Source of the DNA: an uncultured Lachnospiraceae bacterium
Lineage (GTDB): Bacteria; Bacillota; Clostridia; Lachnospirales; Lachnospiraceae
Direction: 5' to 3'
DNA: 64,000 nucleotides
NCBI GenBank assembly: GCA_947631505.1
Contig: CANRLR010000011.1
Coordinates: 12,063 to 76,062, forward strand
Shown: positions 7,022-31,064 of the stretch, piece by piece
Position numbering within the stretch: the stretch's first letter is position 1
How the letters are laid out: each line of letters starts with the position of its first letter
The notes under the pieces: model-generated
Told to the model about the DNA's origin: nothing
The model's input: only the letters and a program-made list of their open reading frames with translations
The model's database searches: none
Made by a program: the position numbers and the translations under genes

Positions 7022-7202
7022 TACTTTTTTTATTGTATATTGAATCGGTTTTTGCAAATATAAAAAGAAATATACACCCTGTGTTTCTATTCATTAACAA
7101 ACTTTTTTTATTTTATATGTTTCAATGTCTCTCAGACTGCTATTCATATTTTTGATTTTTTTATTGTACTACAACTCATAATTATATGCAAGTAAAAACA
7201 CT

Positions 7203-7218
7203 ACTATGCTATGAAAAT
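7203..7218 (+). repeat. Left copy of the flanking direct repeat (probable target-site duplication)
   Basis: ACTATGCTATGAAAAT, identical to 35939-35954. The core 14 bp is 7204-7217 if the element ends are TG...CA. Confidence 0.85.
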
Positions 7219-7374
7219 GAAAATGTCAACCTTTTTTTGTGATATTTTTCTAGTTCTTTACAATTTGTTACTTTTCACAATATAATTGTGACGTTTTTGT
7301 GCATTTTGGATATTTTTTGATACAACAAAAGAACTGCCTGTTCGCCAGTCGGAAAAACATATAGTTCGTATCTA

Positions 7375-8415
7375 CTATGTTACAAGTGCAAGTTCCTTTT
7401 GGAACTCCTGATTTGCAGTACGAAAGCCAAATAACTTTCTAGGATAATTATTCATCCAGTTCTCAACCGCCTTCACTTCCTCATCCGTCATGTGGTCAAA
7501 ATTACTTCCTTTGGGAACCTTCCGCCTGACAAGCCGATTCTGATTTTCATTTGTTCCTCGTTCCCACGATGAATACGCATGACAGTAATATACTTCTGTT
7601 CTGTTCCCACCATACACAGATTTCTCCATCTCTTCAGAAAAGGAGAATTCCGTTCCATTATCTACTGTAATACTTTTAAATACCTTTTTGAAATCATCTT
7701 TCCATAGTCTTTCCAATTCATCTAATTTCTTAACAACCTCACAAGCTGAATGATTCGGCAACTTAAATAGGATTTCTTTCCTAGTCTTCCGCTCGGTAAG
7801 AACAAGCAGCGAATTTTTACTTACACCACGTTTGCCAACAACCGTATCCATTTCCCAGTGCCCAAATTCTTTTCTGTTTTCAATTTTTTTAGGACGTTTA
7901 GCTATGCTTTTACCTGCACTTGCTCTTTTTTGCCTTTTAATATGTCTATAATTCCGTTTCTTCTTTCTTTTAACTGGTAAATCTTTATTGGATAATCGAA
8001 AGAAGATCCCTTTATCGATGTAACTATATAAAGTTGCTACACATATCTTTGTTTTGAATTCCTTTCCCTTTCCAGTTTTTTCTAATTCTCCCAAAACAGC
8101 AGATGGAGAGTAATCTTCTTCTACAATTTTCTTTTCCAAATATTCTGCATAATCATAATCATTAGAAATTTTTAAACCGGTTCCCCTCGTACTCACATTT
8201 TGTTGATATTTTTCTTCTGCCAAATCCGGAGAATATCGCCATTCTTCCGTATAGTCACTATTTCGGTGCAGGTACTTTCCTCTTTTTAGTTCATTCGTAA
8301 TAGTATTTGGATGACAATGCAAACATACTGCTATTTCACCCTTTTTCATTCCTTTTCGTAGTAGGTTTTCAAGTAAAAGCCTATCTTCATATCGTAAATG
8401 TCGATATCCTTTCAC
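7375..8415 (-). CDS. IS30-family DDE transposase (intact)
   Basis: N-terminal HTH (RHLRYEDR...HPNTITNELKR); GHWEMDTVVG, SITVDNGTEF, WERGTNENQNRLVRR catalytic motifs; GTG start. Confidence 0.93.
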   Translation of the reverse strand: MKGYRHLRYEDRLLLENLLRKGMKKGEIAVCLHCHPNTITNELKRGKYLHRNSDYTEEWRYSPDLAEEKYQQNVSTRGTGLKISNDYDYAEYLEKKIVEEDYSPSAVLGELEKTGKGKEFKTKICVATLYSYIDKGIFFRLSNKDLPVKRKKKRNYRHIKRQKRASAGKSIAKRPKKIENRKEFGHWEMDTVVGKRGVSKNSLLVLTERKTRKEILFKLPNHSACEVVKKLDELERLWKDDFKKVFKSITVDNGTEFSFSEEMEKSVYGGNRTEVYYCHAYSSWERGTNENQNRLVRRKVPKGSNFDHMTDEEVKAVENWMNNYPRKLFGFRTANQEFQKELALVT

Positions 8416-8490
8416 AACTGCTCCCCCTCATCATTGGTTATATTGTTAATTTCGCTTATTATTTAAAGAAATTAGAAAAGAACATCTTAC

Positions 8491-8667
8491 TTATTCTTTC
8501 TCCTCTGCTATTTTTTTTAATTTTTCTATTATTAATTTCTCTACATATTGGGGTGGTTTTCTCTTCCCTGTTTCCCAATTTTCAATGGTTCTTTTTGGAA
8601 TTTCAAACCTTTTTGACATTTCTAATTGTGTTAGTCCTGCTTGCGTTCTGTAATCTTTTATTGTCAT
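8491..8667 (-). CDS. Xre/Cro-like HTH transcriptional regulator (58 aa)
   Basis: MTIKDYRTQAGLTQLEMSKRFEIPKRTIENWETGKRKPP; RBS GGGGGA before ATG 8667. Confidence 0.88.
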   Translation of the reverse strand: MTIKDYRTQAGLTQLEMSKRFEIPKRTIENWETGKRKPPQYVEKLIIEKLKKIAEEKE

Positions 8668-8753
8668 TGTTTTATTCCCCCTTTTTATAATTATAGATTT
8701 TGACAATATTCATCTTTGCGGAATCTTCGTCCTTTTTTTCATCTTATGCACAC

Positions 8754-8782
8754 ACAATATCACTCATTGAGTGATATGTCAA
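8754..8782 (-). promoter_or_regulatory. Promoter of the xre-transposase unit with a perfect palindromic operator in its spacer
   Basis: TTGACA (8782-8777), 17 nt, TATTGT (8759-8754); ATATCACTCA-T-TGAGTGATAT at 8757-8777. Confidence 0.75.
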
Positions 8783-8853
8783 GTATTATATTATTATTTT
8801 GTCTTCTAATATCAAAGTTTTTCAAGCTGGGGGCGGATTGTTTTCTATCTTTA

Positions 8854-11058
8854 CTAAGAAAGAGAATTCATTGCCATATAGGCTTCTTTCTTCCGGAACA
8901 TTTCCTCTTCACTCAAAAGCGGATGTATAATGCTCTTAATAACATCTTCCGGCACTTGCAGTTTCTTCAATTCCTTTACCACACTTCTCCTTGTATCGTC
9001 CAACTGGTCAGAGGCAAAGATATCTAAAAGTGGCAGCCGCTCATAACTTTCCCGATACAGCCGTTGTTTCTCTTCTCGTTCCGCTTCCTGTTCCTTATGG
9101 TACAGTTCCTGCATACGTTCCAACGAAAGATTTACCTTGTCAGTATCATTTATTTTTTTGGCAAGTCGATCTAAATCCATGTTCATAAAATCAAATGCAT
9201 TTATCGTATAATGCCGGATTGAAGAATCCTTTTCCGACATCTTTTTGTAGTATTCCATGGATTGGGAATTCAAAAGGCGAATACTGTCCTCTTCCGCTTT
9301 CCGGTGTTCCTGCACTTTATACTTACCATACGATAATGCTTTGTTATAGATTTCATGTTCCCATGGAAACCATTTCTTATCCCGGAGCGGTTCTTCCCCC
9401 CGGACAAACAGGATACATTCATCATCCGGCAGAAGCCGAACCTCATACTCCATCATTAGTTCTCTTCCTAATACATCAAAGTTTTCACTATGTGAACCAG
9501 ACGTGCCGGTGCTTTCTCCTGTCGTTTTTTTATCTACGGTCCATTTTCCGAGTAATTTTGTTATGTATTCAAAGGTACTTTCTTCATTTCCTCCCAAATA
9601 TAGGAACGTATCACAGTTACCGACAACTCCCTCCCATGCTCCATCTGCAAACAGAGTTTTCATCTGTGCTAGGGATTGCAGCATAGGAACACAATAAATT
9701 CCCCGGCTTCGGCAGGTTGCCATTATCTTATCAAAGTTTGCTGGCATTTTAATATTGGCAAACTCATCTAACCAAAATCCAACATCAATAGGAAGTCTTC
9801 CACTATACAATCGAGATTGATAATAAAGTTGGTCAAAAAGCAGTGTATAAACCATTCCGGGAACAAAATTGTAAGTGATATCTTCGTCCGGGATTACCAT
9901 AAAGAGAAAACTTTTTGTTGTTTCATCTCCATCCTTTCCCACACCGAATTCATCCAACGGAATATCATTACTGGTAAAGATTTCCAGCAATTCCTCATTA
10001 TCGAACGGCTGCATGCGTCCATTCACGGTTGCTAGTACGCTTCGTCTAGTATCTTCCGGAGAGCTTAAATATCTGCGGTATGTTTTTACTGCTGGATGAT
10101 TCGGCTCACTTTTTTCCAACTGTTTCATCCGGATATCTAGTTTAGTCGGAGTATCCGGCTCTTCAAATTGTGCTTCATCCAGCAGATACATAATGGATTT
10201 CATATTCTTTTCTAAAATGGTCAGTTCTCCAGTTTCTAAATTTTTAGACACCGTCGGACACTCTCTCCATACATACAAAAAGAGAGCTTCCAAAAACATT
10301 CGTTCCGATTTTTCCCAAAAAGGGTCTGCTGTCGAATTTTTTATTTTCTCCGAATCTGTATTTTGTATCAAGTTGGAAACCAACTTCGATATGTCTTGAC
10401 GTTTTCGCAGGAAAAGAAACGGATTAATATGCATACTCTTTTCAAAGTCAATCAGGTTGAGCGTATATACTCTTGTATTTTCTTGTTCTTGAAGATAATT
10501 TCCTAATTCCTCTAACGTAGAACCTTTGGAATCCGTTATCACGTTAGATCCGTAAGCATTTAATAAGTTGGGGGTTAATAGGAAAGAGGTTTTACCAGCA
10601 CCGGAACCACCAACCACAAAGGTATTGTTATTTCGCAAGGTGGACGCAGCATAACGGAATCGTATATTCTCCGATAAAATCCGGTTATTTTTCTTATTTG
10701 TATCTGCATACTTTTGGTTAAATTTACTTATATCTCCCCATTTTGCGGAACCGAACTCGTTGCCCGGCATACGGTTGTTATTCATTTTGATGTACTGATT
10801 TGCAGTAAAAGTAAACCATAACAATACAACCAGCAGTAAAAATGGTTTGGTCTTTTCGTTCCAACAGGAAAGGGGGTTTTTTAAACAATAGACCAGTTTT
10901 TCTTCCACATTTTCCATTGTAACACCGTCTAAGGCAAACAAACCGCTGATACAAAGTGCTAGATACAATAGAAAAAGAAGAACCAGTACACTTATTATTA
11001 GGAAATTGCGTAAACGGATTTTCCTTGAATCCGTAACATTACTTACTCTTTTTTTCAT
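8854..11058 (-). CDS. virD4: VirD4/TraG-type conjugative coupling protein
   Basis: N-terminal TM segments, FGSAKWG, Walker A VVGGSGAGKT, FWLDEFANI, LQSLAQ. Confidence 0.93.
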   Translation of the reverse strand: MKKRVSNVTDSRKIRLRNFLIISVLVLLFLLYLALCISGLFALDGVTMENVEEKLVYCLKNPLSCWNEKTKPFLLLVVLLWFTFTANQYIKMNNNRMPGNEFGSAKWGDISKFNQKYADTNKKNNRILSENIRFRYAASTLRNNNTFVVGGSGAGKTSFLLTPNLLNAYGSNVITDSKGSTLEELGNYLQEQENTRVYTLNLIDFEKSMHINPFLFLRKRQDISKLVSNLIQNTDSEKIKNSTADPFWEKSERMFLEALFLYVWRECPTVSKNLETGELTILEKNMKSIMYLLDEAQFEEPDTPTKLDIRMKQLEKSEPNHPAVKTYRRYLSSPEDTRRSVLATVNGRMQPFDNEELLEIFTSNDIPLDEFGVGKDGDETTKSFLFMVIPDEDITYNFVPGMVYTLLFDQLYYQSRLYSGRLPIDVGFWLDEFANIKMPANFDKIMATCRSRGIYCVPMLQSLAQMKTLFADGAWEGVVGNCDTFLYLGGNEESTFEYITKLLGKWTVDKKTTGESTGTSGSHSENFDVLGRELMMEYEVRLLPDDECILFVRGEEPLRDKKWFPWEHEIYNKALSYGKYKVQEHRKAEEDSIRLLNSQSMEYYKKMSEKDSSIRHYTINAFDFMNMDLDRLAKKINDTDKVNLSLERMQELYHKEQEAEREEKQRLYRESYERLPLLDIFASDQLDDTRRSVVKELKKLQVPEDVIKSIIHPLLSEEEMFRKKEAYMAMNSLS

Positions 11059-11062
11059 ATTA

Positions 11063-12460
11063 TCATCCCCTTTTTATTTTTGGTATATCGGTAGATTTTC
11101 TTTGAAATTCTTTTAATGCAAAATCTTTTGCTTGTACTGGAGATTTCTTGTTTGTCAGTTCCATTCTGTCAATCAAATCAATATTTTCTATTTTGGATTT
11201 CGCAGTAGCTTTCCCAGTATGAACATCATGCCGACTTATTTCCGTTTTCTCATCTTTTTTTATAAATGTCTGAATACTCTTTTTATCTTCTGACAGAATA
11301 GCGTCCTTTTTCGGAATCGTAAGCATTTCCACTGTATTTTCACCTTGGGTGCCCGGCAGCTTTACGACATAAATATTTTTTGTTTCTGCTACCAAACTGT
11401 TTTCTAAAACAAACGTTATTGGAACATACTCTGGATTAGAAACTTTCTCCTTTAAACCCTCCAAATAAAGTGCACTTTGAATGGTTTCCACGTTTTGTTC
11501 CACATTCCTAGATAATAAAAGTTGTTCTAAATTTGGTTTTTTATCATTCACTTTTGGATTTTCACGGACAGAATCTTTTGGGACAGGAGCTTCTTTTTTC
11601 TCCTGTCCCATATTAAAATTTGGCATAGCATCCGTATCCGAAAGTCGTATTCGTTCTGACTGTTTTATTTTTTCGGGCTTGACTTTGTTAAATTTGCCAA
11701 AAAATTTCTGATGTTCCGGATTGTCTTTTCGCAGATGGGTATAAATCGTTTGACCTTTATCAATCAGCACACAATCCTCTTTGTATAGTATTATTTTTTC
11801 TTTTCGCCCGGTATGTGGTATATAACACAGGTAGGAATCCGGTCTTTCCTGAATCAAAAGAGTATCTATATTTATCGAAACTGGACGGTAATTCATATCC
11901 TTATTCCGGTCACGGATTCGCTGTAAATGCTGCATATGGGTTTCTTTTTCATATCCTTTTGCTGCCAGCTCATCCAATAGCTTTTTTCCTCTCTCCCCAC
12001 CCATTTGCTCATATTTTTCCAAAGAAATTTCAGCCGCTTCTATTTCCATTTTTTCCTTATAATACTCGACAACCACTTTTATTTTACCTGCTTCCTGTGG
12101 ATTATAAGCAATCTGGGTATAACCATCCCCAATATTCAAATCTGGCAGTTCCGCAAAAGATACGTTTATATTTTTAAGACGGTCATAAAAACCAATTAAA
12201 TCCTTTTCGTTTTCAAAGGGAATGTTTAAAATGCCATATTCGCCTCCTGTTATTTTTTCTAAATCCGTAACCTTCATTGTCTCATGTTTCCCTTGACTTG
12301 CGTAATGAACTTTCATTTTTTTCTGCATTCTTTTTAATTGTGCTAATTCCGCACCTTTTTTTGCTCCATTAGCAGACAGCCGGATTCCCTTAAACAATCC
12401 CCCCGCTGCTTTTCCGGACAGTTCTAGTATCTGCACCATTCCGTAAATCTCTTCACTCAT
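11063..12460 (-). CDS. Conjugation accessory protein, PcfB/DUF3801-like (tentative)
   Basis: Directly upstream of virD4; N-terminal helical region and LKNINVSFAELPD motif. Confidence 0.5.
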   Translation of the reverse strand: MSEEIYGMVQILELSGKAAGGLFKGIRLSANGAKKGAELAQLKRMQKKMKVHYASQGKHETMKVTDLEKITGGEYGILNIPFENEKDLIGFYDRLKNINVSFAELPDLNIGDGYTQIAYNPQEAGKIKVVVEYYKEKMEIEAAEISLEKYEQMGGERGKKLLDELAAKGYEKETHMQHLQRIRDRNKDMNYRPVSINIDTLLIQERPDSYLCYIPHTGRKEKIILYKEDCVLIDKGQTIYTHLRKDNPEHQKFFGKFNKVKPEKIKQSERIRLSDTDAMPNFNMGQEKKEAPVPKDSVRENPKVNDKKPNLEQLLLSRNVEQNVETIQSALYLEGLKEKVSNPEYVPITFVLENSLVAETKNIYVVKLPGTQGENTVEMLTIPKKDAILSEDKKSIQTFIKKDEKTEISRHDVHTGKATAKSKIENIDLIDRMELTNKKSPVQAKDFALKEFQRKSTDIPKIKRG

Positions 12461-13106
12461 GCTTTTTCACCCTTTCTATCCATTTTTTAAAAGTTCCCTG
12501 TTTTATTTGCTGCTCTCGCTCCTTTTTCCCCTGCTCCAATTGATAAAATTGAATATATCTTGCCATCTGCAGCTGGGTTTTATCCGGTGTGGCAAAGTGC
12601 AGAATTTCTTTTTCCGGTATCTGCAACTTAATTGCCTTAGTAATCTCATCTAATTGCGGAGCGGTAAAATTATTTTCTTCCAAGATTAGTTTCTTTATTT
12701 CCGCATACCTGCTTTGCTCTGACTCTTTGGCAAAGGTAATTCTTATATGTTCCTCTTTTTCCAGCTCCTCTAAAGTAACACCAAGTTTAGCAAAAAGTGA
12801 TTCATATCGATTACACAATTCTTCTCTTTTCTTCTGTTCTGCGACAACCGTTTGAATGTATTCCTTTGGTGCCATTTCTTCTCCCGGTGCTGGAAGTTTA
12901 AAAAGCATTGCAATCCGGCACAAATCCTTATCAATTAATTTTTTCTTCGTCTTGTCAAAGAGGTAGGCTTCAATTTCCTCTTCGGACATATCATATCCAA
13001 TTCCAAAAAGGAGAAGAATATAATTTACCGTAGCTTCATCACAGGTTGCTGCAAAGTTATATTTCTTTTGTAATTGTTTTATTCTGCTGTTTTGTTCTTC
13101 TGTCAT
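12453..13106 (-). CDS. Hypothetical ICE protein
   Basis: 217-aa ORF overlapping its neighbours inside the operon. Confidence 0.7.
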   Translation of the reverse strand: MTEEQNSRIKQLQKKYNFAATCDEATVNYILLLFGIGYDMSEEEIEAYLFDKTKKKLIDKDLCRIAMLFKLPAPGEEMAPKEYIQTVVAEQKKREELCNRYESLFAKLGVTLEELEKEEHIRITFAKESEQSRYAEIKKLILEENNFTAPQLDEITKAIKLQIPEKEILHFATPDKTQLQMARYIQFYQLEQGKKEREQQIKQGTFKKWIERVKKHE

Positions 13107-14298
13107 ATTCAGTCACTTCCTTTCCTTGATTCCGCCGGAATCTCTTTAATTCTTTTATTTCCTCATGCTGCTCATCCAGTCTTTCTTCTTTTCCGAAATC
13201 CGGTTTTTTTAAAATCCGGTTTCGTTTAAATGCTTCCTCTTTTTCCAAACAAGAAATCGTTTCCGATAAATCCCGTTCCGAACGAATATTATGCTGATAT
13301 AACAGGGAAATGTCTTTCATCATACGATTGATGGCTCTCACGCTTTGCTCATGGTATTTTAGGGTTGTATTCGTCCGGGAATAAAGCCGTCTTGCTGCCA
13401 AAACCTGACGGACAAAATATTGTTGATAGGGAGACATCGAGTGATACGAAAATTTACGGTAACGATTGATAAACCAATCACTGGAACGGCGGAAGACTAC
13501 TCGGTACATTTCAATTTCATCCCTGTGTTTTCTGCTGACTTTATACAATTCTTTTTCCATTCTCTCACCAATTTTCTTTTCAATAGCTTCTGGAATGTAA
13601 CCACTTTTCAAATGATAAGAACGAATCGCTTTTCCTTTGCCCGGTGGAGTTAAGGCAAGATACACCCCATGCTTTTCCGAAATACCCTCCCGCAGGTTGT
13701 AACCAAATTCCTGTTGCAGCCGGATTTTGAAATCTTTATAGCTTTGGCTGTGTTCGATACACTGATCGATATCATTCTCCACCGTTTCTTTCCAATTGTG
13801 AGCCGGAGAGTAATCCAATTTTCTATCTTTTTCCTTTAATTTCCCGGTTGCATATTTTTCACAAATCCGGTTCGTAAGTGGTGTAATCTTCTGTTTCCAT
13901 TCTCTGTTGTCGTAATGGTATTTCCCGCCAGTCCGTTTCACGGAATTAAAAACAAGGTGCATATGTGTCAGTTCCCGGTCACTGTGTTCCGCTACCACAT
14001 AATCATAGCTATCTCCTAAATATTCCTCCGCCCAATCTTTTATAAATTCCAATGCATTGTCATGGGTAATTTTTTCATCCGCAGAAAAAGAAAATTTGAG
14101 ATGATACCCCTGTCTTTTTCCGCGGACTGGATTCATTTCTTTTGTTAGGAAAAAAGTATCCATAATCTGTTCCACCGTTGTTCCACTATTACTAAATGTT
14201 CTTCCCTGTGTTTTGTATTCCTGCATAACATACCCAATCGCCTTTTTTAAATGGGATTCTGTTACAATCGGTTCATCGAATCGGATAATGATAGACAT
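13057..14298 (-). CDS. MOB_P relaxase
   Basis: AIGYV, GYHLKFSFS, YVVAEHSDRELTHMHLVFNSV (3H motif). Confidence 0.92.
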   Translation of the reverse strand: MSIIIRFDEPIVTESHLKKAIGYVMQEYKTQGRTFSNSGTTVEQIMDTFFLTKEMNPVRGKRQGYHLKFSFSADEKITHDNALEFIKDWAEEYLGDSYDYVVAEHSDRELTHMHLVFNSVKRTGGKYHYDNREWKQKITPLTNRICEKYATGKLKEKDRKLDYSPAHNWKETVENDIDQCIEHSQSYKDFKIRLQQEFGYNLREGISEKHGVYLALTPPGKGKAIRSYHLKSGYIPEAIEKKIGERMEKELYKVSRKHRDEIEMYRVVFRRSSDWFINRYRKFSYHSMSPYQQYFVRQVLAARRLYSRTNTTLKYHEQSVRAINRMMKDISLLYQHNIRSERDLSETISCLEKEEAFKRNRILKKPDFGKEERLDEQHEEIKELKRFRRNQGKEVTEYDRRTKQQNKTITKEI

Positions 14299-14300
14299 TC

Positions 14301-14639
14301 TTATCCCCCTTTCTTTCGCAGAATAGAAACAACGGTTTCGGATAGTTTATTTATCCTATCCATCCTATCTATCAAATCTTTTCTTGGCTGTGTGTAGTGA
14401 TACTCATTATACTTTTTTGCAATCTGATTGATATTTACACCGATTTTCCGAATCTGATAAATATACTCTTGTTGTAACTGGTTAAATTCTGTTCTTGTTA
14501 CCTCCGGTGGGACAGCAATATTTCTTCTCACATATTCACTAATGGTAAGATGTTCTCTTGCTGCTGCACGGCGGAGATTTTCCTTTTCTCTTTTGGTCAG
14601 TCTTACCTTTACAACTTCTGTTTTTGTTCTTGCTTTCAC
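14301..14639 (-). CDS. mobC: MobC relaxosome accessory protein (RHH)
   Basis: VKVRLTKREKENL...LTISEYVR; IRKIGVNINQIAKKYN; likely GTG start at 14639 behind AGGAGAGG. Confidence 0.88.
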   Translation of the reverse strand: MKARTKTEVVKVRLTKREKENLRRAAAREHLTISEYVRRNIAVPPEVTRTEFNQLQQEYIYQIRKIGVNINQIAKKYNEYHYTQPRKDLIDRMDRINKLSETVVSILRKKGG

Positions 14640-14656
14640 CAAACCTCTCCTTTTGA

Positions 14657-14980
14657 TTGTGCAATTTATGTGTAATTTTGCGTATTCAATGCACAAGGTT
14701 ACACAACAATTACACAAAATTACACATTTTTTGTACAATCAAGCACTTTTATTTATGTGCAATTTCTACACATTTTTGTGCTTTTTTACACAACTTGAGA
14801 TTACGAACATTGCACAACTTTTACTCATTTTTGTGCAAATTTTGTGTAATGTATTTTTTCCAAATTACATATTTTTTGTGCAATTATGAATAATTCTACA
14901 TAAATTTACACATTTTTGTGTAATACCATTTTTTGTATTTTGCACATTTTTTGTGTATTTTTGTTCAAGAAATGTGTAAA
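14657..14980. repeat. Array of about 22 degenerate octamers (TTGTGCAA/TTGTGTAA and complements)
   Basis: Copies near 14657, 14669, 14689, 14699, 14710, 14720, 14756, 14786, 14810, 14831, 14842, 14876, 14906, 14916, 14940, 14951, 14972 and others, many 10-11 bp apart. Confidence 0.8.
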
Positions 14981-14986
14981 AAAATG

Positions 14987-15055
14987 CGGGTTTTAACCCG
15001 GCAAGACACGCTTTTTGTGTCCACAAAAAGCAGCTTGTTAGGGAAGTTTCCCTAA
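14987..15055 (-). promoter_or_regulatory. Candidate oriT with nic site
   Basis: Perfect IR GCTTTTTGTG-TC-CACAAAAAGC (15010-15031) followed on the minus strand by GTGTCTTG|CC; flanking IRs at 14987-15000 and 15038-15055; lies upstream of mobC and the relaxase. Confidence 0.65.
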
Positions 15056-15095
15056 GACCCTCTGTCATACAGCAGGGCAGTAAGCAAGGCAGACA

Positions 15096-15368
15096 CTACT
15101 TAAGTGCCCGCCTGATATCATCCATCTCTATGCAGCTGTCCTTTTTCGGAAGTTGCATAAAGATGGAATCTAACATACATTCCATACTTAACAGCAAACA
15201 AATTTCTTCTCTTGTAAAAGTCTCTTCTTCTTTTAGCAAATCATAAATTCTTTTTTTCGTGGCAATCATCTCTGCCATGACAAAAAGATTTTCTCTGGAC
15301 AAACTCATCATGTCACATTGGAACATTTTCCATTCCCATTTTAATTTTTCCTTTAGTTTTTCTTTCAT
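15096..15368 (-). CDS. Hypothetical ICE protein (DUF3848-like, tentative)
   Basis: 90-aa ORF at the end of the tra operon. Confidence 0.6.
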   Translation of the reverse strand: MKEKLKEKLKWEWKMFQCDMMSLSRENLFVMAEMIATKKRIYDLLKEEETFTREEICLLLSMECMLDSIFMQLPKKDSCIEMDDIRRALK

Positions 15369-15380
15369 CTGAAACCTCTC

Positions 15381-16076
15381 CTAACCAACATCTTTTTTTG
15401 TTTTCTTTTTTTTCTTTGCTTTCTTTTTTGCCTTTGCCAATTTTTTCTTCTTTACCTGTCTTTCCTTTTTTAACTTCTCCGCAGCCTTTTTCACGTCTGC
15501 TTTTTTCATTGCTGCAACATCATTTTGCGAAAGTTCTGTTTTGGAAACCGATACAGCACTGTTTTTTAAATGATAAGAAAGCTTAAAAACACACTTATCT
15601 GAAGAAATCAGATATGTTGTGACCTGATAAGTATTACTTGTCTTTTGGTAATCCAGTGTATGAATGGAAGCCGCTTTTGTCTTCCTGCATTCCTCTTTCA
15701 AATTGGTCACTAGTTTTTCAAATGCCTCATCTGTCATAAAGCTGAGCAGGGAAGAAATACCTGTCGTATCCAATTCATATCGGTTTTCTTCCTCCTCCGG
15801 CTGGCCAGTTTTTTGTTCTTCTGAATCATTTAACTCTTCCATTGCTTCTCTGGAAACTGCTTCCCCGCTGACAGAAGAACCACTGACTGCACTACCGCTG
15901 ACTGCTCCGCCAGTAACACTGGCAGCTGGCTCTTCTTTCTTTGGGATTCCTAGACGTATCAGGTTCACAAAAAACAATAAAACAAGAACTGCCAATAAAG
16001 CAAAAAGGAAAAGACACCGTCTGCCTTTTCCCCTGTCTCTTTGTTTCCAATAAATACAGCGAATCTTTTTTAACAT
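15381..16076 (-). CDS. Membrane-anchored conjugation protein (hypothetical)
   Basis: One N-terminal TM segment, GSAVS repeats, Lys-rich tail; follows the hydrolase. Confidence 0.7.
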   Translation of the reverse strand: MLKKIRCIYWKQRDRGKGRRCLFLFALLAVLVLLFFVNLIRLGIPKKEEPAASVTGGAVSGSAVSGSSVSGEAVSREAMEELNDSEEQKTGQPEEEENRYELDTTGISSLLSFMTDEAFEKLVTNLKEECRKTKAASIHTLDYQKTSNTYQVTTYLISSDKCVFKLSYHLKNSAVSVSKTELSQNDVAAMKKADVKKAAEKLKKERQVKKKKLAKAKKKAKKKKKTKKDVG

Positions 16077-16100
16077 TTGTCACACTCCTTTTTCGATTTT

Positions 16101-17786
16101 TCATGACGCTTTTTCCCAATTTTTTAATCTGCGGAAATAGGTAAAGTTCGTATAGGAGCTCATCAGCACCCCGGAAGAATTTCCGGTCAGAGACTGCCTA
16201 TTACTCGAGGTACAGTGAAGCCATACCTTTGTTCCGTTTTTTAATTTTCCGCAATAGATACCAACGTGGTTTGCTCCCCCGGTGGGAGCGGTGGCACTTT
16301 TCAGTCCAATATCCCCGACTGTTAAATCACTTGCTTCTATCGTTTCAAATTTTGAGGATTCGATAAAAGTTTTTGTAGTGGAAGTATAGGGAATCCCAGT
16401 ATATCCGCTCTTGTGAAAACTCCAAGCCACAAAAGAGGAACAGTCAAGGACTGTTGGAGAATCTCTTCCATCATCCTGCCTTGGCGGATCAAGCATTCCA
16501 TAGGTAACCGCTCCGGTCAGAGAAGCTCCCTTTTCAATTAAATTCCATACAGAAGCAGAAGCTCTGTTGTTTTCTTTTAGTTCTTTTATCAGAGCTGCCG
16601 CCTTTTCATTGGTGACCTCGGTTTTACCGTTCTGTACATAATACCGCAGCACATGAGGGACGTACTCCACATCACCATAGGAAGATAAATGTAAACTGCT
16701 GCACATCTTCGCCGAAAAAATCTTGGCGTTATCCTCTGAATAACCGCCATAGTTGGTCTTTGCCCATGAAATATAACCGTTGCCAAAGTTATACCCCTGC
16801 AGGGCGAGGGATATCGAAGAAATATCACTGGGACTTTTTACGCTGCTCTCTGTCAGGCAATCACTTAATTCATGTACGCCGCAGTCAATACTTTCCTCTG
16901 TCGTATCAATCGGAGGTTCTTTATTATAATAAGATTGTTCTGCCTGCATGACATCAATTCCCTTGCCGCCGCTTTCCTGTTCCATTACAGCAAGACACAA
17001 ATCCACATAGTCCTCAATGTCATATTTTTCACAATAATAAGAAACCATTACTCGGTAGTTTTCTGTTTCCTCTGAAACCTGACACTGATAAGTGTTACTG
17101 TTATCCTGCGTTACAATACTAACAATGAGAAAAAGAATTACCAAAATAAGAAGAACCAATAGGACAATTAGCCAGCGAATCGGATTCATCTGCTTTTTTA
17201 CCCCTTTGATAAGCTTTCTCTTTCTCAAAAAATTCCCGAACAAAGTTTTCCCCGCTTTGGTTGCCGCTTCATTCATTTTTTTGTGAAGCTGTTTTTTCAT
17301 AAAAAAAACCTTTAACCTGTTTTTTGCTTTCTTCTCTTTACCATAAGAATGTTTGTAAACCATTTGAGATACGGAAGAAAGTGGCAAAGATTTCAACAAT
17401 TGTTCCTGTTCCGTTGGTATGTTAAGTTCTATCTTTCCCTTGGATTCATCACTCTCCGTGCTGGAAAGCATGGCGTTAAAAACAGCTGCCATATATTCCT
17501 GTGATTGTTGTTTCGTTTGTTTTAATCCGGTATTCGTTTGTTCGCCTTTTGAAAAAGTTTTCGGGCTCTTCTTTTGCTTTTGGTAGTAAATCTTTTTTTT
17601 CTTTGAGCAATTCTTCATTTTCTCCTTAGCCTGTTGCTGTTTTGCTATTTCCATAGCATGTTCTAGCAACTTCTTTTGTGTCCTTTTGTCTAGAGAAAAA
17701 AATCTCTCCTTAGCAACATCACTCAACTTTTCAATAACAGCAAGTTCTTTTTCCGTAAATCTACCAAGCCGTAATTTCCTTTTCAT
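16101..17786 (-). CDS. CwlT/VirB1-like peptidoglycan hydrolase (lysozyme-like + NlpC/P60)
   Basis: LAVMEQESGGKGIDVMQA, ALQGYNFGNGYI; LDCSSFVAW...NHVGIY. Confidence 0.9.
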   Translation of the reverse strand: MKRKLRLGRFTEKELAVIEKLSDVAKERFFSLDKRTQKKLLEHAMEIAKQQQAKEKMKNCSKKKKIYYQKQKKSPKTFSKGEQTNTGLKQTKQQSQEYMAAVFNAMLSSTESDESKGKIELNIPTEQEQLLKSLPLSSVSQMVYKHSYGKEKKAKNRLKVFFMKKQLHKKMNEAATKAGKTLFGNFLRKRKLIKGVKKQMNPIRWLIVLLVLLILVILFLIVSIVTQDNSNTYQCQVSEETENYRVMVSYYCEKYDIEDYVDLCLAVMEQESGGKGIDVMQAEQSYYNKEPPIDTTEESIDCGVHELSDCLTESSVKSPSDISSISLALQGYNFGNGYISWAKTNYGGYSEDNAKIFSAKMCSSLHLSSYGDVEYVPHVLRYYVQNGKTEVTNEKAAALIKELKENNRASASVWNLIEKGASLTGAVTYGMLDPPRQDDGRDSPTVLDCSSFVAWSFHKSGYTGIPYTSTTKTFIESSKFETIEASDLTVGDIGLKSATAPTGGANHVGIYCGKLKNGTKVWLHCTSSNRQSLTGNSSGVLMSSYTNFTYFRRLKNWEKAS

Positions 17787-20191
17787 CCAACATCACCTGT
17801 CTTTTGATTGACCAACTCATGAAAGTCTGTATTAAATAACTGATACAAATTGGATTCTTTGTTTACCGTATTATCAAAGGGTACGATCTTTTTCCCAAAA
17901 CGAATCAGTCCGCAGCCTTTTTTTGCACCATTGACATATTCAGCTTGTTTATCCGACAATTCAAAGATACCACTTACATCTTCTTTATCCATTACTCCCT
18001 GATCAAGAAGTAATGTAAACTCACTGTTCGATATCATTGTCATAATTTCTTTATTATCAATAGCTTCTGTGATGTTCTGCGTCATTCCGGTACAAAGACC
18101 ACCGCGTTTTCGGACTTCACGCCACAACTTTTTTACTGCGGAAAGTGAATATTCGTCTTCCCACAGCTCATGAATCTCATCCACATATACCCATGTAGCA
18201 ACACCCTGCATCTGATTATATTTTATTTTACTGGTAATGCTCTCAATCATAACGAGCATTGCCATGGAACGCATTCGTTTTCCTAATTCCGAAAAACCAT
18301 ATACGGTAAGACGATTCCCCGAAGAAACCGACTGCTGTCTGGAAAAGATGTCAAGTGTTCCCTCTGAGAATACTTCCAGTTGGAAATAAATATCCTGTGC
18401 CTCCGGATTACAAATCTCTTCTTTTATGAGGTCTCTCATAGTGGAAATCGTAGGACTGGTAGTATAGGCAAAGGTCTCCCTTTCTTTCTTCTTTGTCCGG
18501 TTGTATTGCTCAAAATACTGTTGATACATAGTTCTCACTGCCCGGTCAATGACAGCGATGTGTTTACTGGATAGCGGTGTCGGCTTTAATGCCTGTTCAC
18601 ATATCGCATAGGCGAACTCTGCTTTTTCTGCAATGAACTTGTCTTTATCCGGAACTCTGTCTGGCACATGAAAGGGATTAGAATAATAAACATTTTCCTC
18701 ACTTTGAGAAAGATTATAATAAGCTCCTTCCCATTCCTGTGTAATATTCCGATATTCTCCCATAGGGTCAATAATTTCAATATCATCTTCCGTAAAGGCA
18801 AGTACCTGACCCATTTCCGTCTTCTCATTGAAAGATTTTCCACTTCCCGGAACACCAAAAACCATTCCATTCCCATTTTTTAATTCTTTTCGATTACCAA
18901 GAATCAAATTTTTTGTAACTTCATTGACACCATAATAAAAACCACCCTTATCTTGTATCTCCTGTACATTAAAGGGTGCAAAGATGGAAAGGGAATCCGT
19001 TTTCAGAATCCGCATAGTTTCGACAAATCTTGCCCCGGTGGGAAGGGTAGTGTTCATTGCGTCTAACTGATTATACGAATGCGGTACAATATCCATATTA
19101 TAAGTCTGACCGATAATCTTAATGGTTTCTTTTCGTGATTCCAGTTCCTGCATAGAATCCGCACGAATCAAAATCGTGATTCCTACATAAAAAAGACGTT
19201 CATCAAACGAGTGAATATCATCTAACATTTCTTCCAGCTCTTTTTGCTGTATCCTTTTTTCATACGATATGTTACTGGAGTAATCTCCGGCTTCGTTCTT
19301 TGCTTCCTGCTGTTTTATGATACTCCGCTCATTATTCATATACTTTTTCATTGTCAAGTTATAAGCACTGGCATTATCTAACGGTTCAATGTCAAGTGTT
19401 ATCATAACAGGAAAAGAAACATTAGTAAGCTCATTCATGAACCTGTCGGATAATCCACTGGCAAACTTTCTTACAAACATTGCACAAGCTACTTTACCCT
19501 CCTCAAATTCAAGATATTCTTTATGCTCTTTCAAGGAAACATTAATAATGTCATTCCGCCAGTCACGTCTTAGGGTAATGTATTCATCCCAGTCAAATGT
19601 AAAGTTTTCCTCTTCCCCCATTCGGTAAAAGTCATGCAGAGAACGTAACCGCAAGGAAGAATCCAGTGGTATCAAGCCACTTCCAAAGCTCCGGAAAAAC
19701 TGCATAAGAGAGAACTCTATCGTATTAAAATAATTTCTTGCGGAATCAAAATCATTTTCCCTACAGGTAATAATGTAATATTTCGATTGTTCAATACCAT
19801 TTCTTCCCGCATGAAGCCGTTCTTCAATCAATTCATGGTATTCTTTTGCTAATGGCTCTAACTCATTGCAGGAAGCCTTATGTAAAATAGATTTTCTCAG
19901 GTTCTCATTATTTACATAGTGATTACATACAATAATTTTATAACTTACATTCATAGAATTAAGCAGTTTTTTGAATTTCTTAGCCGTTACCTCCTTTTCT
20001 TCTTCATCCTGTGTAGAAAAGTTAATGTCTTCAAATAGATATGCTTTATCAAAAAGATGTCTGCCTTTTTTCTTCTCCAGTTCAAAAATTCCATTCTCTG
20101 CTATTCGATATATTGGAATCGTATCTTGAATACAATAGGGAACTTTACAAATTGGCTCTGTTAGCTGCTTATCGGTTTTATCTCTTGCCAT
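17783..20191 (-). CDS. virB4: VirB4-like conjugative ATPase
   Basis: NGMVFGVPGSGKSF, IIDPMGEY, WVYVDEIHEL, GMTQN. Confidence 0.93.
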   Translation of the reverse strand: MARDKTDKQLTEPICKVPYCIQDTIPIYRIAENGIFELEKKKGRHLFDKAYLFEDINFSTQDEEEKEVTAKKFKKLLNSMNVSYKIIVCNHYVNNENLRKSILHKASCNELEPLAKEYHELIEERLHAGRNGIEQSKYYIITCRENDFDSARNYFNTIEFSLMQFFRSFGSGLIPLDSSLRLRSLHDFYRMGEEENFTFDWDEYITLRRDWRNDIINVSLKEHKEYLEFEEGKVACAMFVRKFASGLSDRFMNELTNVSFPVMITLDIEPLDNASAYNLTMKKYMNNERSIIKQQEAKNEAGDYSSNISYEKRIQQKELEEMLDDIHSFDERLFYVGITILIRADSMQELESRKETIKIIGQTYNMDIVPHSYNQLDAMNTTLPTGARFVETMRILKTDSLSIFAPFNVQEIQDKGGFYYGVNEVTKNLILGNRKELKNGNGMVFGVPGSGKSFNEKTEMGQVLAFTEDDIEIIDPMGEYRNITQEWEGAYYNLSQSEENVYYSNPFHVPDRVPDKDKFIAEKAEFAYAICEQALKPTPLSSKHIAVIDRAVRTMYQQYFEQYNRTKKKERETFAYTTSPTISTMRDLIKEEICNPEAQDIYFQLEVFSEGTLDIFSRQQSVSSGNRLTVYGFSELGKRMRSMAMLVMIESITSKIKYNQMQGVATWVYVDEIHELWEDEYSLSAVKKLWREVRKRGGLCTGMTQNITEAIDNKEIMTMISNSEFTLLLDQGVMDKEDVSGIFELSDKQAEYVNGAKKGCGLIRFGKKIVPFDNTVNKESNLYQLFNTDFHELVNQKTGDVG

Positions 20192-21287
20192 GCTGGATAC
20201 TCCTTTCCTGCTGTCTATTCTCCCGCTCTATTTCCTGCCTGCGTTCCAATTCCAAATCGTCTGTCAAACCATAGTCAAGTGCCAATTCGAGAACGTCCCG
20301 CTCTGCTTCGGACAGTTGATGTTCCTGATGTTCCTGTTCTCTGATATGTTCTTGGCCGCAAATGGTTAATGTCTGCATTTTAGCATTATATTCATAAACA
20401 TGGTCTGATAACCATTGCTCCGGGAGAACATTATCCTTATTAATCATTTTTACATTTTCCTGTAATTCCATATAGTCCATATCCGTAAATGCTTTGACAA
20501 CAATAATTACTTCATGAACGGAAGACGGCAAAACAAAGTAATCGCCACCTACTTTTTCTGCTATCCTTTTTTGCAGTTCAGGATTTATGATTTCAGCTGC
20601 TCCGTCTACAAATTCCGGATTCGATACTACCAGCAAGGAATCAGATTCCACATCCAGCATATCATCCTCATATAAGCTCCATTCTTTTTCCGGAAAAAAC
20701 AATTTGAGTGATTCCCATAACGGTATTAGTGTAGCCCTGTTCTCCTGTATCATATTGGCAATAGCCGTATCATGAAGTTGTTCTTTAGATATTCCATAAG
20801 CAGAAAGCATTTTATTAGTTATGGTAATGGCACTCACTCCCTCGCTGTTTCTTTCCAAAATAATTTTATACATAACTGCCAAATCCTGATAATCTGTGTA
20901 CGGCTTATCCTGCAGATAGTCTTTGTTTCTTTCTTTATTAATTAATCGGCAGGTGACCCGATTCTTTACCATATTCCAATCTGATACCATTGACAAGATA
21001 CCTTCTGCTTCTTTAATATCCATAACACCTGAATTTCTTACCACATCTGCAACATAGCGAACGACCGAATTCATATCCAGTCCATTTTCCATATATTGTT
21101 CATAAAGAGACTGCAAACCAACGCTGATTCCGGTTCTCTCTTCCCCTCTCCAAATACTTATACGGTCATTATTCGTATCATTAATACCATAGGAAGTAAC
21201 GGTATCCATCTTATAACTCTCTTTCTCATTCGTAAAATATTGGTTCAAATTTCCCTTTAAGGATAAAATAAACTCTTCGTAACTCAT
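20178..21287 (-). CDS. DUF5688-like protein
   Basis: RLINKERN..YL.DKPY, DLAVMYKI, YFVLPSSVHEVIIV. Confidence 0.75.
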   Translation of the reverse strand: MSYEEFILSLKGNLNQYFTNEKESYKMDTVTSYGINDTNNDRISIWRGEERTGISVGLQSLYEQYMENGLDMNSVVRYVADVVRNSGVMDIKEAEGILSMVSDWNMVKNRVTCRLINKERNKDYLQDKPYTDYQDLAVMYKIILERNSEGVSAITITNKMLSAYGISKEQLHDTAIANMIQENRATLIPLWESLKLFFPEKEWSLYEDDMLDVESDSLLVVSNPEFVDGAAEIINPELQKRIAEKVGGDYFVLPSSVHEVIIVVKAFTDMDYMELQENVKMINKDNVLPEQWLSDHVYEYNAKMQTLTICGQEHIREQEHQEHQLSEAERDVLELALDYGLTDDLELERRQEIERENRQQERSIQHGKR

Positions 21288-21412
21288 GATTCTTCCTCCT
21301 CTCTTTTTCTTTTCCTGATTGCTTCTTCATAAGATATTATCCGTTTCCTATTCCTCTTCTTGTCAAACTCTTCATACTCTGCTATTATCTTTTCTAATTT
21401 ATTTTCTTTCAT
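21284..21412 (-). CDS. Unannotated 42-aa charged protein
   Basis: MKENKLEKIIAEYEEFDKKRNRKRIISYEEAIRKRKREEEES; overlaps the prgI end, and its stop overlaps the next ATG (ATGA). Confidence 0.45.
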   Translation of the reverse strand: MKENKLEKIIAEYEEFDKKRNRKRIISYEEAIRKRKREEEES

Positions 21413-21794
21413 TTTGCGTTCTCCTTTCTTCGATTCGGATTAGAATTCTTTCAATTCCTTTTGCCTGTGTTTCTGTTACCGCCATTTCTTTTTCTCCCTG
21501 CCTGCTACAGAACATAAGCGGTTTCTGTCGGCAAAGTTTCATTTTCTTTCGGATAATGGCAAGAAGTGTCATTCCATTCTGCGAATAAAATCCACATAAA
21601 CCAATTACGGCAATGACTGGAATACACAAAGTAATTGCAATATTAACATTTACACCACAAACAAAAACCATAACAAATACACTTCCGGCACCAAGGATAA
21701 AAGCAGATAGCCCATAAATACATTCTCGGAGTGTTAATCCCTTAAAAAAATCATCTTTTATCGCTCCAATATCCTGATTAATCTCTTTATTCAT
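21399..21794 (-). CDS. prgI: PrgI-family (VirB3-like) membrane protein
   Basis: EINQDI....DDFFKGLTLRECIY, two TM segments, near virB4. Confidence 0.85.
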   Translation of the reverse strand: MNKEINQDIGAIKDDFFKGLTLRECIYGLSAFILGAGSVFVMVFVCGVNVNIAITLCIPVIAVIGLCGFYSQNGMTLLAIIRKKMKLCRQKPLMFCSRQGEKEMAVTETQAKGIERILIRIEERRTQNERK

Positions 21795-21808
21795 GTTTTT
21801 TTCACCTC

Positions 21809-22630
21809 CTATAAGTTAAATGCCTTTTGCATAACGGCTTCTACCCCTTTAACGGCACTCGTAATAGACGCCATTTTTATACAGTATTGCACTAGTATAA
21901 CAATGGAACTTTCACTTTCAATTGAAACCGTCTGGATAAAGGTTGTGCTAAGAATGATAGCCATTGCAACGAGCAGAATTTCCAGTGCATAGCCGAAAAA
22001 TGTTTTAATATAAGAATATCCTACCTGTGACAGTTGTCCTCCGGCTGCCAGTGTAGAAAGTGCCACGCTGCAAAATGGGGCTATCATAAAAATTTTCAAG
22101 AAACGTTTCAAAACCGCCATGACAATCAGGAATCCACACACCGCTGCGAACAGAAAGAACAAAAAGGAAGTCAGAAAAACTGTAATATTTCCCCAAGGTG
22201 TACTTTGAATATTTTCATATATTTTTGCTCCATCAATGTAAAAACCGAATTTTTTTGTTCCTAAAATGGCACTGCTTAAATCTCTCGCCCATTTCAGAAA
22301 ATCCGGAAGCCAACTAAACACAAAGGTCACTACATTAACTACAAGGACCAAACGAATAAAAAGTTTAATTGTCCGGTCTAATGTCATTTCTGTATGCAAA
22401 TCAGTGCATTCTTTACAAAAACCATAAAGAAAAAACAAAGTAGTCAGAACTCCCGCCAATAGATTCATAGTCTTATACACATTAGTAACATCTGTCCATG
22501 TGTCGGCATAAACTCCATTGGTTGGATTTTTCAGCATAACACCACTAGCAAATTTCATCATGTCATTCCATGCATATCCAGCCAGTTCATAGAAAGTTTC
22601 TCCACTAAAAAAATCTAACAAGGTATTCAC
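21809..22630 (-). CDS. VirB6-like polytopic membrane protein
   Basis: Multiple TM segments; RFLKIFMIAPFCSVALSTLA, YIKTFFGYALE. Confidence 0.8.
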   Translation of the reverse strand: MNTLLDFFSGETFYELAGYAWNDMMKFASGVMLKNPTNGVYADTWTDVTNVYKTMNLLAGVLTTLFFLYGFCKECTDLHTEMTLDRTIKLFIRLVLVVNVVTFVFSWLPDFLKWARDLSSAILGTKKFGFYIDGAKIYENIQSTPWGNITVFLTSFLFFLFAAVCGFLIVMAVLKRFLKIFMIAPFCSVALSTLAAGGQLSQVGYSYIKTFFGYALEILLVAMAIILSTTFIQTVSIESESSIVILVQYCIKMASITSAVKGVEAVMQKAFNL

Positions 22631-22637
22631 CTCTTTC

Positions 22638-22973
22638 TCAGCTAAATGCTACTACAATTAATGGAGTTGCCATCGCGATCAAACCACCGATTACTTTCTT
22701 TATTGCTATCGCCTGTTGTGTCGTATCATGCGAAGAATACGATGTAGCAAAATCGAGAACTCCCCACGCAAGAAATATAGTTCCTACCCCGGCAACTACT
22801 GCCAACGCAATTTTCTGTATTAGGTCAATACCATTAGTTATTTCCTTTACTGCTTTATCTCCACTGTCAGCTGCAAATGCTACCACCGTGTTACTCAAAC
22901 AGACAGCCGGAGTAAGTGCTACTGCCAGCTTACCTTTTTGCTTTCTTAGAAATGTTATCATTTTTTTAATCAT
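22638..22973 (-). CDS. VirB2/TrbC-like pilin
   Basis: Leader ending VVAFA followed by two hydrophobic helices; RBS GGAGG before ATG 22973. Confidence 0.7.
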   Translation of the reverse strand: MIKKMITFLRKQKGKLAVALTPAVCLSNTVVAFAADSGDKAVKEITNGIDLIQKIALAVVAGVGTIFLAWGVLDFATSYSSHDTTQQAIAIKKVIGGLIAMATPLIVVAFS

Positions 22974-22989
22974 CTTATTTTTTCCTCCT

Positions 22990-24486: not shown

Positions 24487-24606
24487 TTAATATACCCCCA
24501 TTCCAATTGTAAATTATTGTTTGTTCTGTCTGCTCCGCTTGAAATTCTTTCGGAACTCCAAAGGAAAAATTCATCTTGTTTATAAAAGCTTCTTCAATTC
24601 TGTTTG

Positions 24607-29560: not shown

Positions 29561-29591
29561 TTTCTTTTCCTTTCCATGTACAAAGACTTCC

Positions 29592-29696
29592 TTACCGGAA
29601 ATCTCTGCATAACAAAGGGATATGTCCCTTGAACATATCCCTGACAACAGTTACCCTGATAAAGTTTTCCTTTGGCGGTGACCGCACTTTTTTCAT
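29592..29696 (-). CDS. Possible 34-aa leader ORF ahead of the adhesin
   Basis: ATG 29696 with AAGGAAG upstream; MKKVRSPPKENFIRVTVVRDMFKGHIPLLCRDFR. Confidence 0.3.
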   Translation of the reverse strand: MKKVRSPPKENFIRVTVVRDMFKGHIPLLCRDFR

Positions 29697-29727
29697 CTTT
29701 CATCACTTCCTTTTCTAATTTGGGTAC

Positions 29728-29760: not shown

Positions 29761-29768
29761 CTACATTT

Positions 29769-31050: not shown

Positions 31051-31064
31051 AAGACTTATCTATT

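Follow-up and report, generated by a model that had tools for sequence, protein, structure and literature searches.

A conjugative element with an IS30-type transposase carries the halves of a predicted sigma-A promoter at its two ends

A promoter split between the ends of an integrative conjugative element

In a 64,000-nt stretch of contig CANRLR010000011.1 from an uncultured Lachnospiraceae bacterium (assembly GCA_947631505.1; the whole stretch is called the window in the following), we delimited an integrative conjugative element (ICE) of 28,721 bp at positions 7218..35938, which has all its large genes on the minus strand and whose tips were obtained from two independent insertions. The element ends in a gene for an IS30-type transposase, and we regard it as rather probable that its excision forms a consensus sigma-A promoter at the joint of its ends, driving at least the gene for a small paralogue of the transposase that consists only of the helix-turn-helix (HTH) part. 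According to the mechanism we propose, excision would join the ends to TTGACA-TTTTCA-NN-GGTAAGTTT-TATAAT, a consensus sigma-A promoter missing from the chromosome. A transcript started at this joint would meet a terminator-like hairpin, a short open reading frame (ORF; orf56) and the gene of the HTH-only paralogue, followed by ssb, a regulator gene and the parM-like and rep-like genes. In this way the circular state of the element would be reported by the joint promoter, which would activate at least the gene of the HTH-only paralogue, a probable binder of the element ends; how far it reaches among the maintenance genes would be decided by the hairpins and their read-through.

Both halves of the promoter are found at the ends of the integrated element when these are read on the minus strand. 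At the transposase end, an outward-facing -35 half, TTGACA (7229-7224), is separated from the tip by the terminal 6 nt TTTTCA (7223-7218), giving the order ...CACAAAAAAAGG-TTGACA-TTTTCA and then TTTTCATAGCATAGT, with AAAGG just 5' of the hexamer. The distal end reads ...GAGA-TTTTCATAGCATAGT-GGTAAGTTT-TATAAT-GAAG..., and here the terminal 9 nt GGTAAGTTT (35938-35930) lie between the tip and an inward-facing -10 half, TATAAT (35929-35924). A preliminary description of this DNA had placed the hexamers at these coordinates, which the sequence confirms, and had counted 6 + 10 = 16 bp between them; the 6 nt stand, whereas the second figure wrongly included base 35939 beyond the tip at 35938, and the distance before any spacer is 6 + 9 = 15 nt. 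With the 2-bp spacer found in relatives (see below), the geometry becomes 6 + 2 + 9 = 17 bp, which lies within 16-18 bp. The frequency per position in the window is 3.8e-4 for TTGACA and 6.0e-4 for TATAAT, and for the window alone chance would give a perfect pair of the two at a usable distance from the tips at about 7e-6. The two ends may be regarded as asymmetric inverted repeats: their outer 15 nt are unlike, with the -35 at one and the -10 at the other, and in register there is only an inner TTGTGA (7237-7242 and 35919-35914), located 20-25 nt from either tip.

Joined ends in relatives of the element

Joined ends of related elements were sought in IMG/VR with the pattern GCATTTA-N3/4-TTGACA-N20-42-AAATGCGA, consisting of an inner repeat, the -35 hexamer, a free gap and the other inner repeat, an arrangement that is impossible within a single integrated copy. 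It was matched by 38 viral contigs, and the length of the match was exactly 48 nt in 37 of them, with a gap left free by 22 nt. Two of these matches look like chance, namely one of 48 nt and the single one of 58 nt. In the other 36 contigs, the proximal tip is followed by 2 variable bases and the distal tip, and TTGACA and TAnnnT are 17 bp apart. The 2-bp spacer varies even between identical tips: CA, GT, TA, AA, TT or TC stand between TTTTCA and GGTAACATT, and TT, AA, GA or GT between TTTTTA and GATAAGTTT. Because the spacer comes from the flank, it differs as it does in IS30 circles. None of the 36 joined forms retains a repeat of 14-17 bp, the outcome that the preliminary description had named as speaking against a junction promoter (hexamers about 30 bp apart). 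Constant length, -10 hexamer and variable 2-bp spacer are not products of the search by construction.

In 32 of the 36 contigs, a transposase 45-61% identical to that of the window lies directly upstream of the joint, which is as close as any relative found. The TTGACATTTTCA tip of the window element occurs in joined form in seven viral contigs, one of which also has the GGTAAGTTT tip, and both GGTAAGTTT and GGTAACATT tips occur joined in relatives. Among the joined contigs is that of a phage, L094, which has an endolysin and also a diversity-generating retroelement. Two isolated phages of the same transposase clade carry comparable pairs, TTGACT-16-TAATAT inside the genome of FP_Lagaffe and TTGACA-16-TAAAAT across the ends of the record of Saumur. 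From the 2-bp joints of the relatives and the absence of a retained repeat in them follows the predicted joint of the window element given above. The earlier proposal of a promoter assembled on circularisation with a spacer of 1-2 bp is strongly backed by the relatives; its claim that this happens "only" on circularisation has to be relaxed, as discussed below. We further noted that the joints hold 2 bp and the insertions duplicate 14-17 bp of target, while both values are 2 bp in IS30, and therefore end-joining and target cutting must use very different staggers in these elements.

Conservation of the promoter halves in integrated relatives

We collected 38 loci in other species that carry relatives of the transposase; these were chosen by protein alone, the closest being 61% identical. 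About 25 of the 38 show an outward TTGACA, TTGACT or TTGAA(A/T) at 4-7 nt from the tip, a few bases from the point where homology to sister elements stops. For nine elements including that of the window, both ends could be paired via the target duplications alone and without reference to the hexamers. The window element and a second element on contig C21 of the same genome both have TTGACA 6 nt from the tip, a duplication of 15 bp and TATAAT 9 nt from the other tip, and element G001 shows the same values with TAAAAT as -10. TTGACA is also present in G005 (6 nt to the tip, 14-bp duplication, 9 nt to TATCAT), G004 (5 nt, 16 bp, 9 nt to TACAAT) and G002 (4 nt, 15 bp, 10 nt to TAAGAT). The -35 is TTGACT in G007 (5 nt, 14 bp, 10 nt to TACAAT), TTGAAT in L026 (5 nt, 15 bp, 10 nt to TAGAAT) and TTGCAA in L028 (6 nt, 17 bp, 7 nt to TAAAAT). 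All nine paired elements thus combine a -35-like hexamer at 4-6 nt with TAnnnT at 7-10 nt, and the two tip distances add up to 14-15 nt in eight of them. The exception is L028, where the hexamers chosen give a sum of 13 nt; of the relatives whose ends were paired, it is the most distant one. The duplications of the nine elements all differ in sequence and therefore derive from the target.

The C21 element (G000:C21:14272-20792; loci L041 and L042) is a second, unrelated element of 6.5 kb. Its transposase is 52% identical to that of the window, and its 15-bp duplication reads CCCGATACGCAAAAC. No match to the conjugation genes of the window's set was found inside it, the relaxase and ParM matches of that contig lying beyond 40 kb. 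Among the relatives found, a VirD4-type gene stands beside the transposase in L016 and L013 only (34% and 27% identity), and conjugative members of the clade exist in other Lachnospiraceae but seem to be rare compared with the phage members.

Transposase, conjugation genes and target duplication

The transposase gene (7375..8415, minus strand) is the last gene of the element and reads outwards. It codes for an IS30-family DDE transposase of 346 amino acids with HTH_38 and rve domains, which matches the NCBIfam model of IS30 transposases (NF033563) with 232 bits against a cut-off of 80 over profile positions 1-267 of 267. Residues D190, D252 and E290 are invariant in 12 relatives. The recombinase of the element is an IS30-family DDE transposase and not a tyrosine or serine recombinase. 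The conjugation set comprises a VirD4-type type IV coupling protein (T4CP; PF02534), a MobA/VirD2 relaxase (PF03432), a NikA/MobC accessory protein and a VirB4 ATPase of the CD1110 family (NF045971, 647 bits against a cut-off of 325). One delimited element thus unites the components expected of an ICE: a relaxase, a coupling protein, a VirB4-type ATPase and an integration enzyme. The remaining genes include those for a lysozyme/NlpC-P60 cell-wall hydrolase, ArdC, a sortase and an adhesin of 1422 amino acids with SpaA repeats, as well as a plasmid-like block coding for the single-strand-binding protein SSB, an actin-like ParM-type ATPase and a DUF6017 protein with weak matches to replication initiators or DnaD-like proteins. 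The 20 large proteins of the element gave no match to families of capsid, terminase or tail proteins. The combination of the conjugation set with an IS30-type transposase therefore defines a conjugative element moved by DDE transposition.

The direct repeat at the flanks is exact over 16 bp (7203-7218 and 35939-35954) and has no other occurrence in the genome. Its true length and the tips of the element became apparent from a second insertion. In other public assemblies, a 100% identical transposase adjoins rplS, and in the same samples the distal end of the element adjoins an ABC-F gene. The duplication at this second site has 15 bp, AATGAAGCAAGAATG, with the flanks TTGACATTTTCA|AATGAAGCAAGAATG... 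and ...AATGAAGCAAGAATG|GGTAAGTTTTATAAT. Comparing the two insertions of an identical element sets the tips at 7218 and 35938, and because the second site shows a duplication of 15 bp, the match of the 16th base (35954) in the window is a coincidence. The target-site duplication in the window therefore comprises ACTATGCTATGAAAA (plus strand) at 7203..7217 next to the transposase end and its copy at 35939..35953 next to the distal end. The second site, between the ABC-F gene and rplS, was recorded in the loci L060-L075 (ENA ERZ27249211 and others; Logan ERR10663674-77), and the window's own insertion site is also present in two of these samples. Copies with 100% identical transposase and ends at two sites point to recent transposition. 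Because the repeats differ in sequence from site to site, they represent a target duplication and not an att core, and the element transposes rather than recombining at one specific site. With 15 bp at both sites and 14-17 bp in the relatives, these duplications are unlike the 2-3 bp of IS30. A tyrosine-integrase element that keeps the repeat in its circle, with about 30 bp between the hexamers, was considered and rejected on account of the IS30-type DDE recombinase and of duplications that are specific to each site.

Genes and hairpins behind the joint

From the predicted joint promoter, transcription would proceed into the distal end, with its start near 35917. The transposase gene ends 146 nt upstream of the -35 and is not fronted by this promoter; the genes 3' of the -10 are those of orf56, the HTH-only paralogue, ssb and others. 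The first ORF (35616..35786, minus strand) codes for 56 amino acids, matches phrog_874 and has a ribosome-binding site (RBS) ahead of it. It is followed by the gene for the HTH-only paralogue (35269..35466, minus strand), whose 65-amino-acid product is 37% identical to residues 5-45 of the transposase (E 9e-8), reaches 24.7 bits with HTH_38, just below the cut-off, and matches phrog_4646, annotated as "transposase". The genes for p171, SSB, p218, the ParM-type ATPase, the DUF6017 protein and p126 follow in the same direction (31065..35250). Gene order and strand agree with the earlier statement that the promoter points at HTH, ssb, parM-like and rep-like genes. The labels "activator" and "parR" used there find weak or no support from matches, p218 showing weak matches alone, to transcription-regulator PHROGs.

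Throughout the family, the genes after the joint are always oriented in the direction of the promoter, with the HTH-only paralogue in first or second place, and an RBS-led gene in the same direction, usually that of the paralogue, comes within 80-150 nt in each case. In the window, a subterminal palindrome, GAAGTTGTGAAAAG...CTTTACAACTTC (35889..35923, minus strand), follows directly after the -10 and contains TTGTGA, but it has no T-run. We also inspected the distal ends of G001, G002, G004, G005, G007, L026, eight viral contigs and the phages Lagaffe and Saumur. Every one of these relatives has a strong hairpin with a T-run that sets in 1-8 nt past the first base of the -10 and has the inner-repeat motif AAATGCGA as its 5' arm. 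A second hairpin is present at +63 to +74 in the closest group (G001, G002, L094, L092, L116), and two such hairpins were read by eye in phage Saumur. In the relatives, a start 6-8 nt past the -10 would fall into the 5' arm of the first hairpin, and RNA started at the joint could therefore escape it; this hairpin could stop read-through from outside and still let joint-started RNA pass. As its conserved cargo, the joint promoter has the HTH paralogue, which lies behind one or two terminator-like structures.

Several observations weigh against the proposed mechanism, and part of them concern hairpins. Between the predicted start and the first ORF of the window lies a terminator-like hairpin with a run of seven T (35821..35866, minus strand), which has 17 pairs (35866-35828), a stability of about -20 kcal/mol and a leader z-score of -4.8. 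It is situated about 50-95 nt past the predicted start and would be transcribed whole from the joint. Another terminator-like hairpin (z-score -5.5) occurs in a structured spacer of 154 nt between orf56 and the HTH gene. Because hairpins precede both the first ORF and the HTH gene, read-through into the whole operon is an assumption, and what is conserved behind the joint in the family is the HTH-only paralogue and not the rep/par module. The previous suggestion that the junction promoter drives an operon from HTH to parR therefore holds in its direction, whereas its range is narrowed by the intervening hairpins and by the conserved target being the HTH paralogue. The wider idea that the joint promoter would switch on replication and transfer is likewise weakened by these terminator-like structures.

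Other observations of this kind concern the joint itself and the integrated state. The search in IMG/VR fixed TTGACA and the inner-repeat motifs, whose conservation among the hits is in part by construction, and the inner repeats of the window element are of another type than the clear GCATTTA/AAATGCGA repeats of the relatives. The joint-bearing contigs show no terminal overlaps and are thus each a putative circle. The window element's own joint was absent, by exact pattern, from the viral contigs, the JGI metagenome contigs and its own assembly. In the chromosome, the two halves had been expected to have only poor partners. This is correct for the outward TTGACA, which faces TAGTAG 17 nt downstream in the flank, and for the second insertion site, where the best -35 partner of TATAAT matches in 3/6 positions. 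At the window site, however, a promoter scan detected TTTTCA-18-TATAAT with 10/12 matches (-35 4/6), the bases of this TTTTCA coming from the duplicated target. Since the duplicated target thereby supplies a 4/6 -35 at 18 bp, the words "only on circularisation" do not hold strictly. At the window site, the right end in its integrated state is probably not silent; the consensus hexamer pair exists at the joint only.

Alternative readings

Taken seriously, the hairpins lead to a different reading, in which the joint promoter does form but its transcripts stop at the hairpin 35866-35828. The product would then be a short leader RNA; or else RNA polymerase sitting on the joint would vie for the abutted ends with the transposase or the HTH paralogue, thereby tuning reintegration instead of turning on genes of replication, partition and transfer. 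The hairpin of about -20 kcal/mol with its U7 tail between predicted start and first ORF fits this well, as do the terminator-like hairpins directly after the -10 in every relative examined, the second hairpin of the closest group, the two in Saumur, and the fact that the promoter overlaps the two tips, which are the substrate of the transposase. On the other hand, the RBS-led gene in the same direction is never missing within 80-150 nt and is usually that of the HTH paralogue, and in most relatives the joint RNA would lack the 5' arm of the first hairpin and might escape it. We consider this reading rather unlikely.

Still less probable, in our opinion, is that the hexamers are mere recognition sequences of the transposase in the terminal repeats, devoid of transcriptional meaning. 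It is true that they lie inside the terminal 15 nt handled by the transposase, and the targeting upstream of host -35 sequences suggests that the protein may read TTGACA-like DNA. However, the ends differ exactly in this part, -35 versus -10, which is unexpected for a symmetric binding site. The bases between hexamer and tip vary (TTTTCA, AGAGG, TTTACC, TTTGCG and others), whereas the hexamers and the total of 17 bp are kept, and IS30 itself has an experimentally known junction promoter, Pjunc (PMC9333248).

As outward -35 boxes in the ends of insertion sequences are generally known to activate neighbours, the TTGACA might build hybrid promoters with the host flank and drive adjacent genes, the TATAAT being an ordinary weak resident promoter. 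We judge this very improbable: 17 nt past the -35, the window's flank has TAGTAG and the relatives have nothing conserved, and an intact host promoter is located 26 nt from the element tip, so that the neighbour needs no new one. Finally, retention of one 15-bp repeat on excision, as in site-specific recombination, would put the hexamers about 30 bp apart without a promoter and is suggested by the 16-bp direct repeat at the flanks, but it is hardly credible for a DDE transposase whose repeats differ at every site and whose 36 joined relatives all hold 2 bp.

Insertion upstream of host promoters

The flank next to the transposase end contains a host promoter-like site, TTGCAT-17-TACAAT (7163..7191, minus strand), whose -35 starts exactly 26 nt beyond the tip. 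The same offset of 26 nt was observed at the second insertion site, where TTGACT-17-TATATT precedes rplS (L060). Among relatives, it was absent from the more distant ones and present in 7 of 11 scorable flanks, always on the side of the transposase end, as shown by the C21 element and by L005, L006, L007, L016 and L026.

Joining this targeting with the features of the ends, we tentatively propose that one clade of IS30-type transposases constitutes a portable "integrase cassette" of gut Clostridia elements with three linked features, which in the ICE would couple excision to plasmid-like replication and partition and, via a regulator, to transfer; we rate this broader idea below the formation of the joint promoter itself. 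The hosts of the cassette may be tailed phages, small elements of 6-13 kb and a full conjugative element. Its first feature may be the split sigma-A promoter, rebuilt with a 2-bp spacer solely in the excised form. A second one may be the terminal terminator hairpins, which would insulate the element from host read-through and be escaped by RNA started at the joint, and the third may be that insertion takes one orientation, has a stagger of about 15 bp and lies upstream of a host -35 by exactly 26 nt. No description of these three linked features was found in the literature searched.

Relation to known systems

Promoters across abutted ends are established for the IS3 and IS21 families (IS911, IS2, IS21). 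In IS30, a strong Pjunc at the joint of the left and right inverted repeats (IRL-IRR) drives the transposase (PMC9333248). The predicted joint of the window element resembles it in the transposase family, in the 2-bp spacing of the ends as known from the relatives, and in the placement of the -35 in one end and the -10 in the other. The Pjunc of IS30 or IS911 sits in front of the transposase gene; here that gene is found at the opposite end of a 28.7-kb element, upstream of the -35, and what the promoter points at is the HTH-only paralogue and the maintenance genes. Further differences from IS30 are the target duplication of 15 instead of 2 bp and an insertion in one orientation that keeps a constant distance to host promoters. 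The principle of the IS30 joint promoter is known; here it would recur in a conjugative element, directed not at the transposase but at a paralogue that probably binds the ends and at maintenance genes, and combined with a 15-bp duplication.

The closest counterparts in layout are the IScream phages of gut Clostridia, which carry an outward-reading full IS30 transposase at one end and, opposite it, a truncated paralogue of the HTH part only (Wirbel, Hickey et al., Nature 2025, PMC12823448). The window element shares their transposase clade and two-ended layout, but differs from them in that no phage structural genes were found and that relaxase, T4CP, VirB4, hydrolase, sortase and adhesin are present instead. 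The text of the IScream paper treats phages, and neither "promoter" nor "target site" occurs in it (PMC12823448), so that joint promoter and 26-nt targeting find no description there.

Among conjugative elements, the window element can be likened to ICE6013 of Staphylococcus aureus, by description and not by sequence. ICE6013 shows duplications of about 3 bp, short coupling sequences and a gene content resembling that of ICEBs1, and neither a joint promoter nor targeting upstream of promoters has, to our knowledge, been reported for it. It is conjugative and has an IS30-like DDE transposase in place of an integrase (PMC3942029; PMC9779932), the two traits on which the comparison is based. In TnGBS and in conjugative elements of Mycoplasma, the DDE transposases are of the Mutator type (PMC3942029; PMC5812530), and TnGBS1/TnGBS2 of Streptococcus and ISLre2-type insertion sequences are inserted in an oriented manner just upstream of sigma-A promoters (PMC3942029). 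Like TnGBS, the window element combines DDE transposition, plasmid-type replication and conjugation with targeting upstream of promoters; it differs in its IS30-type instead of Mutator-superfamily transposase and in its offset of 26 nt instead of 15-17 bp from the -35. In a survey of the gut, none of the conjugative or mobilisable elements had a transposase (PMC6907783).

Connection of a promoter to genes at the other end by circularisation is also a trait of Tn916 and Tn4451, which the window element would share. In Tn4451/Tn4453, a joint promoter serves the gene of TnpX, a serine resolvase. The transfer genes of Tn916 are expressed only after circularisation, according to Celli and Trieu-Cuot (1998) as cited in PMC5812530. 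In Tn916, complete promoters read through the joint, and both Tn916 and Tn4451 lack a DDE transposase and the 2-bp spacer of the IS30 type.

If the joint promoter works as proposed, the element would sense whether it resides in the chromosome or in a circle without a dedicated sensor, and its end-binding, replication and partition genes would come on only when they are useful. An IS30-type module of gut phages also mobilises a conjugative element, which widens the range of cases where a DDE transposase takes the place of an integrase. Simple sequence rules for delimiting such elements and their excised forms in gut genomes and metagenomes follow from the exact tips, a spacer of 2 bp and an offset of 26 nt, and the split-promoter design could be used as a compact excision reporter.

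Empty-site search and further features of the region

We looked for an empty insertion site and obtained none: no close relative has the window locus, and there is no record of the amylase protein. The comparison of the two insertion sites took its place. The left flank (2531-6681) codes for CRISPR-Cas proteins, with annotated Cas6 and Cas7. A strain that has the neighbouring cas6 gene contains a different intergenic cassette there, with a NERD-domain gene: in this strain (L125), a NERD/Zn-ribbon gene in the amylase-cas6 spacer replaces the 440-bp segment of the window with the insertion site, and the homology between the two strains breaks within the duplicated target.

Within the element, two 67-nt copies (29764-29830 and 30984-31050) are 87% identical and 1220 bp apart. 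They precede the CAP/SpaA gene and the long transfer operon, and may represent a shared regulated promoter. Just inside the transposase end, a promoter-like site, TTTACA-18-TATAAT (7257-7286, plus strand; 11/12 matches), reads inwards and antisense to the 3' end of the transposase gene.

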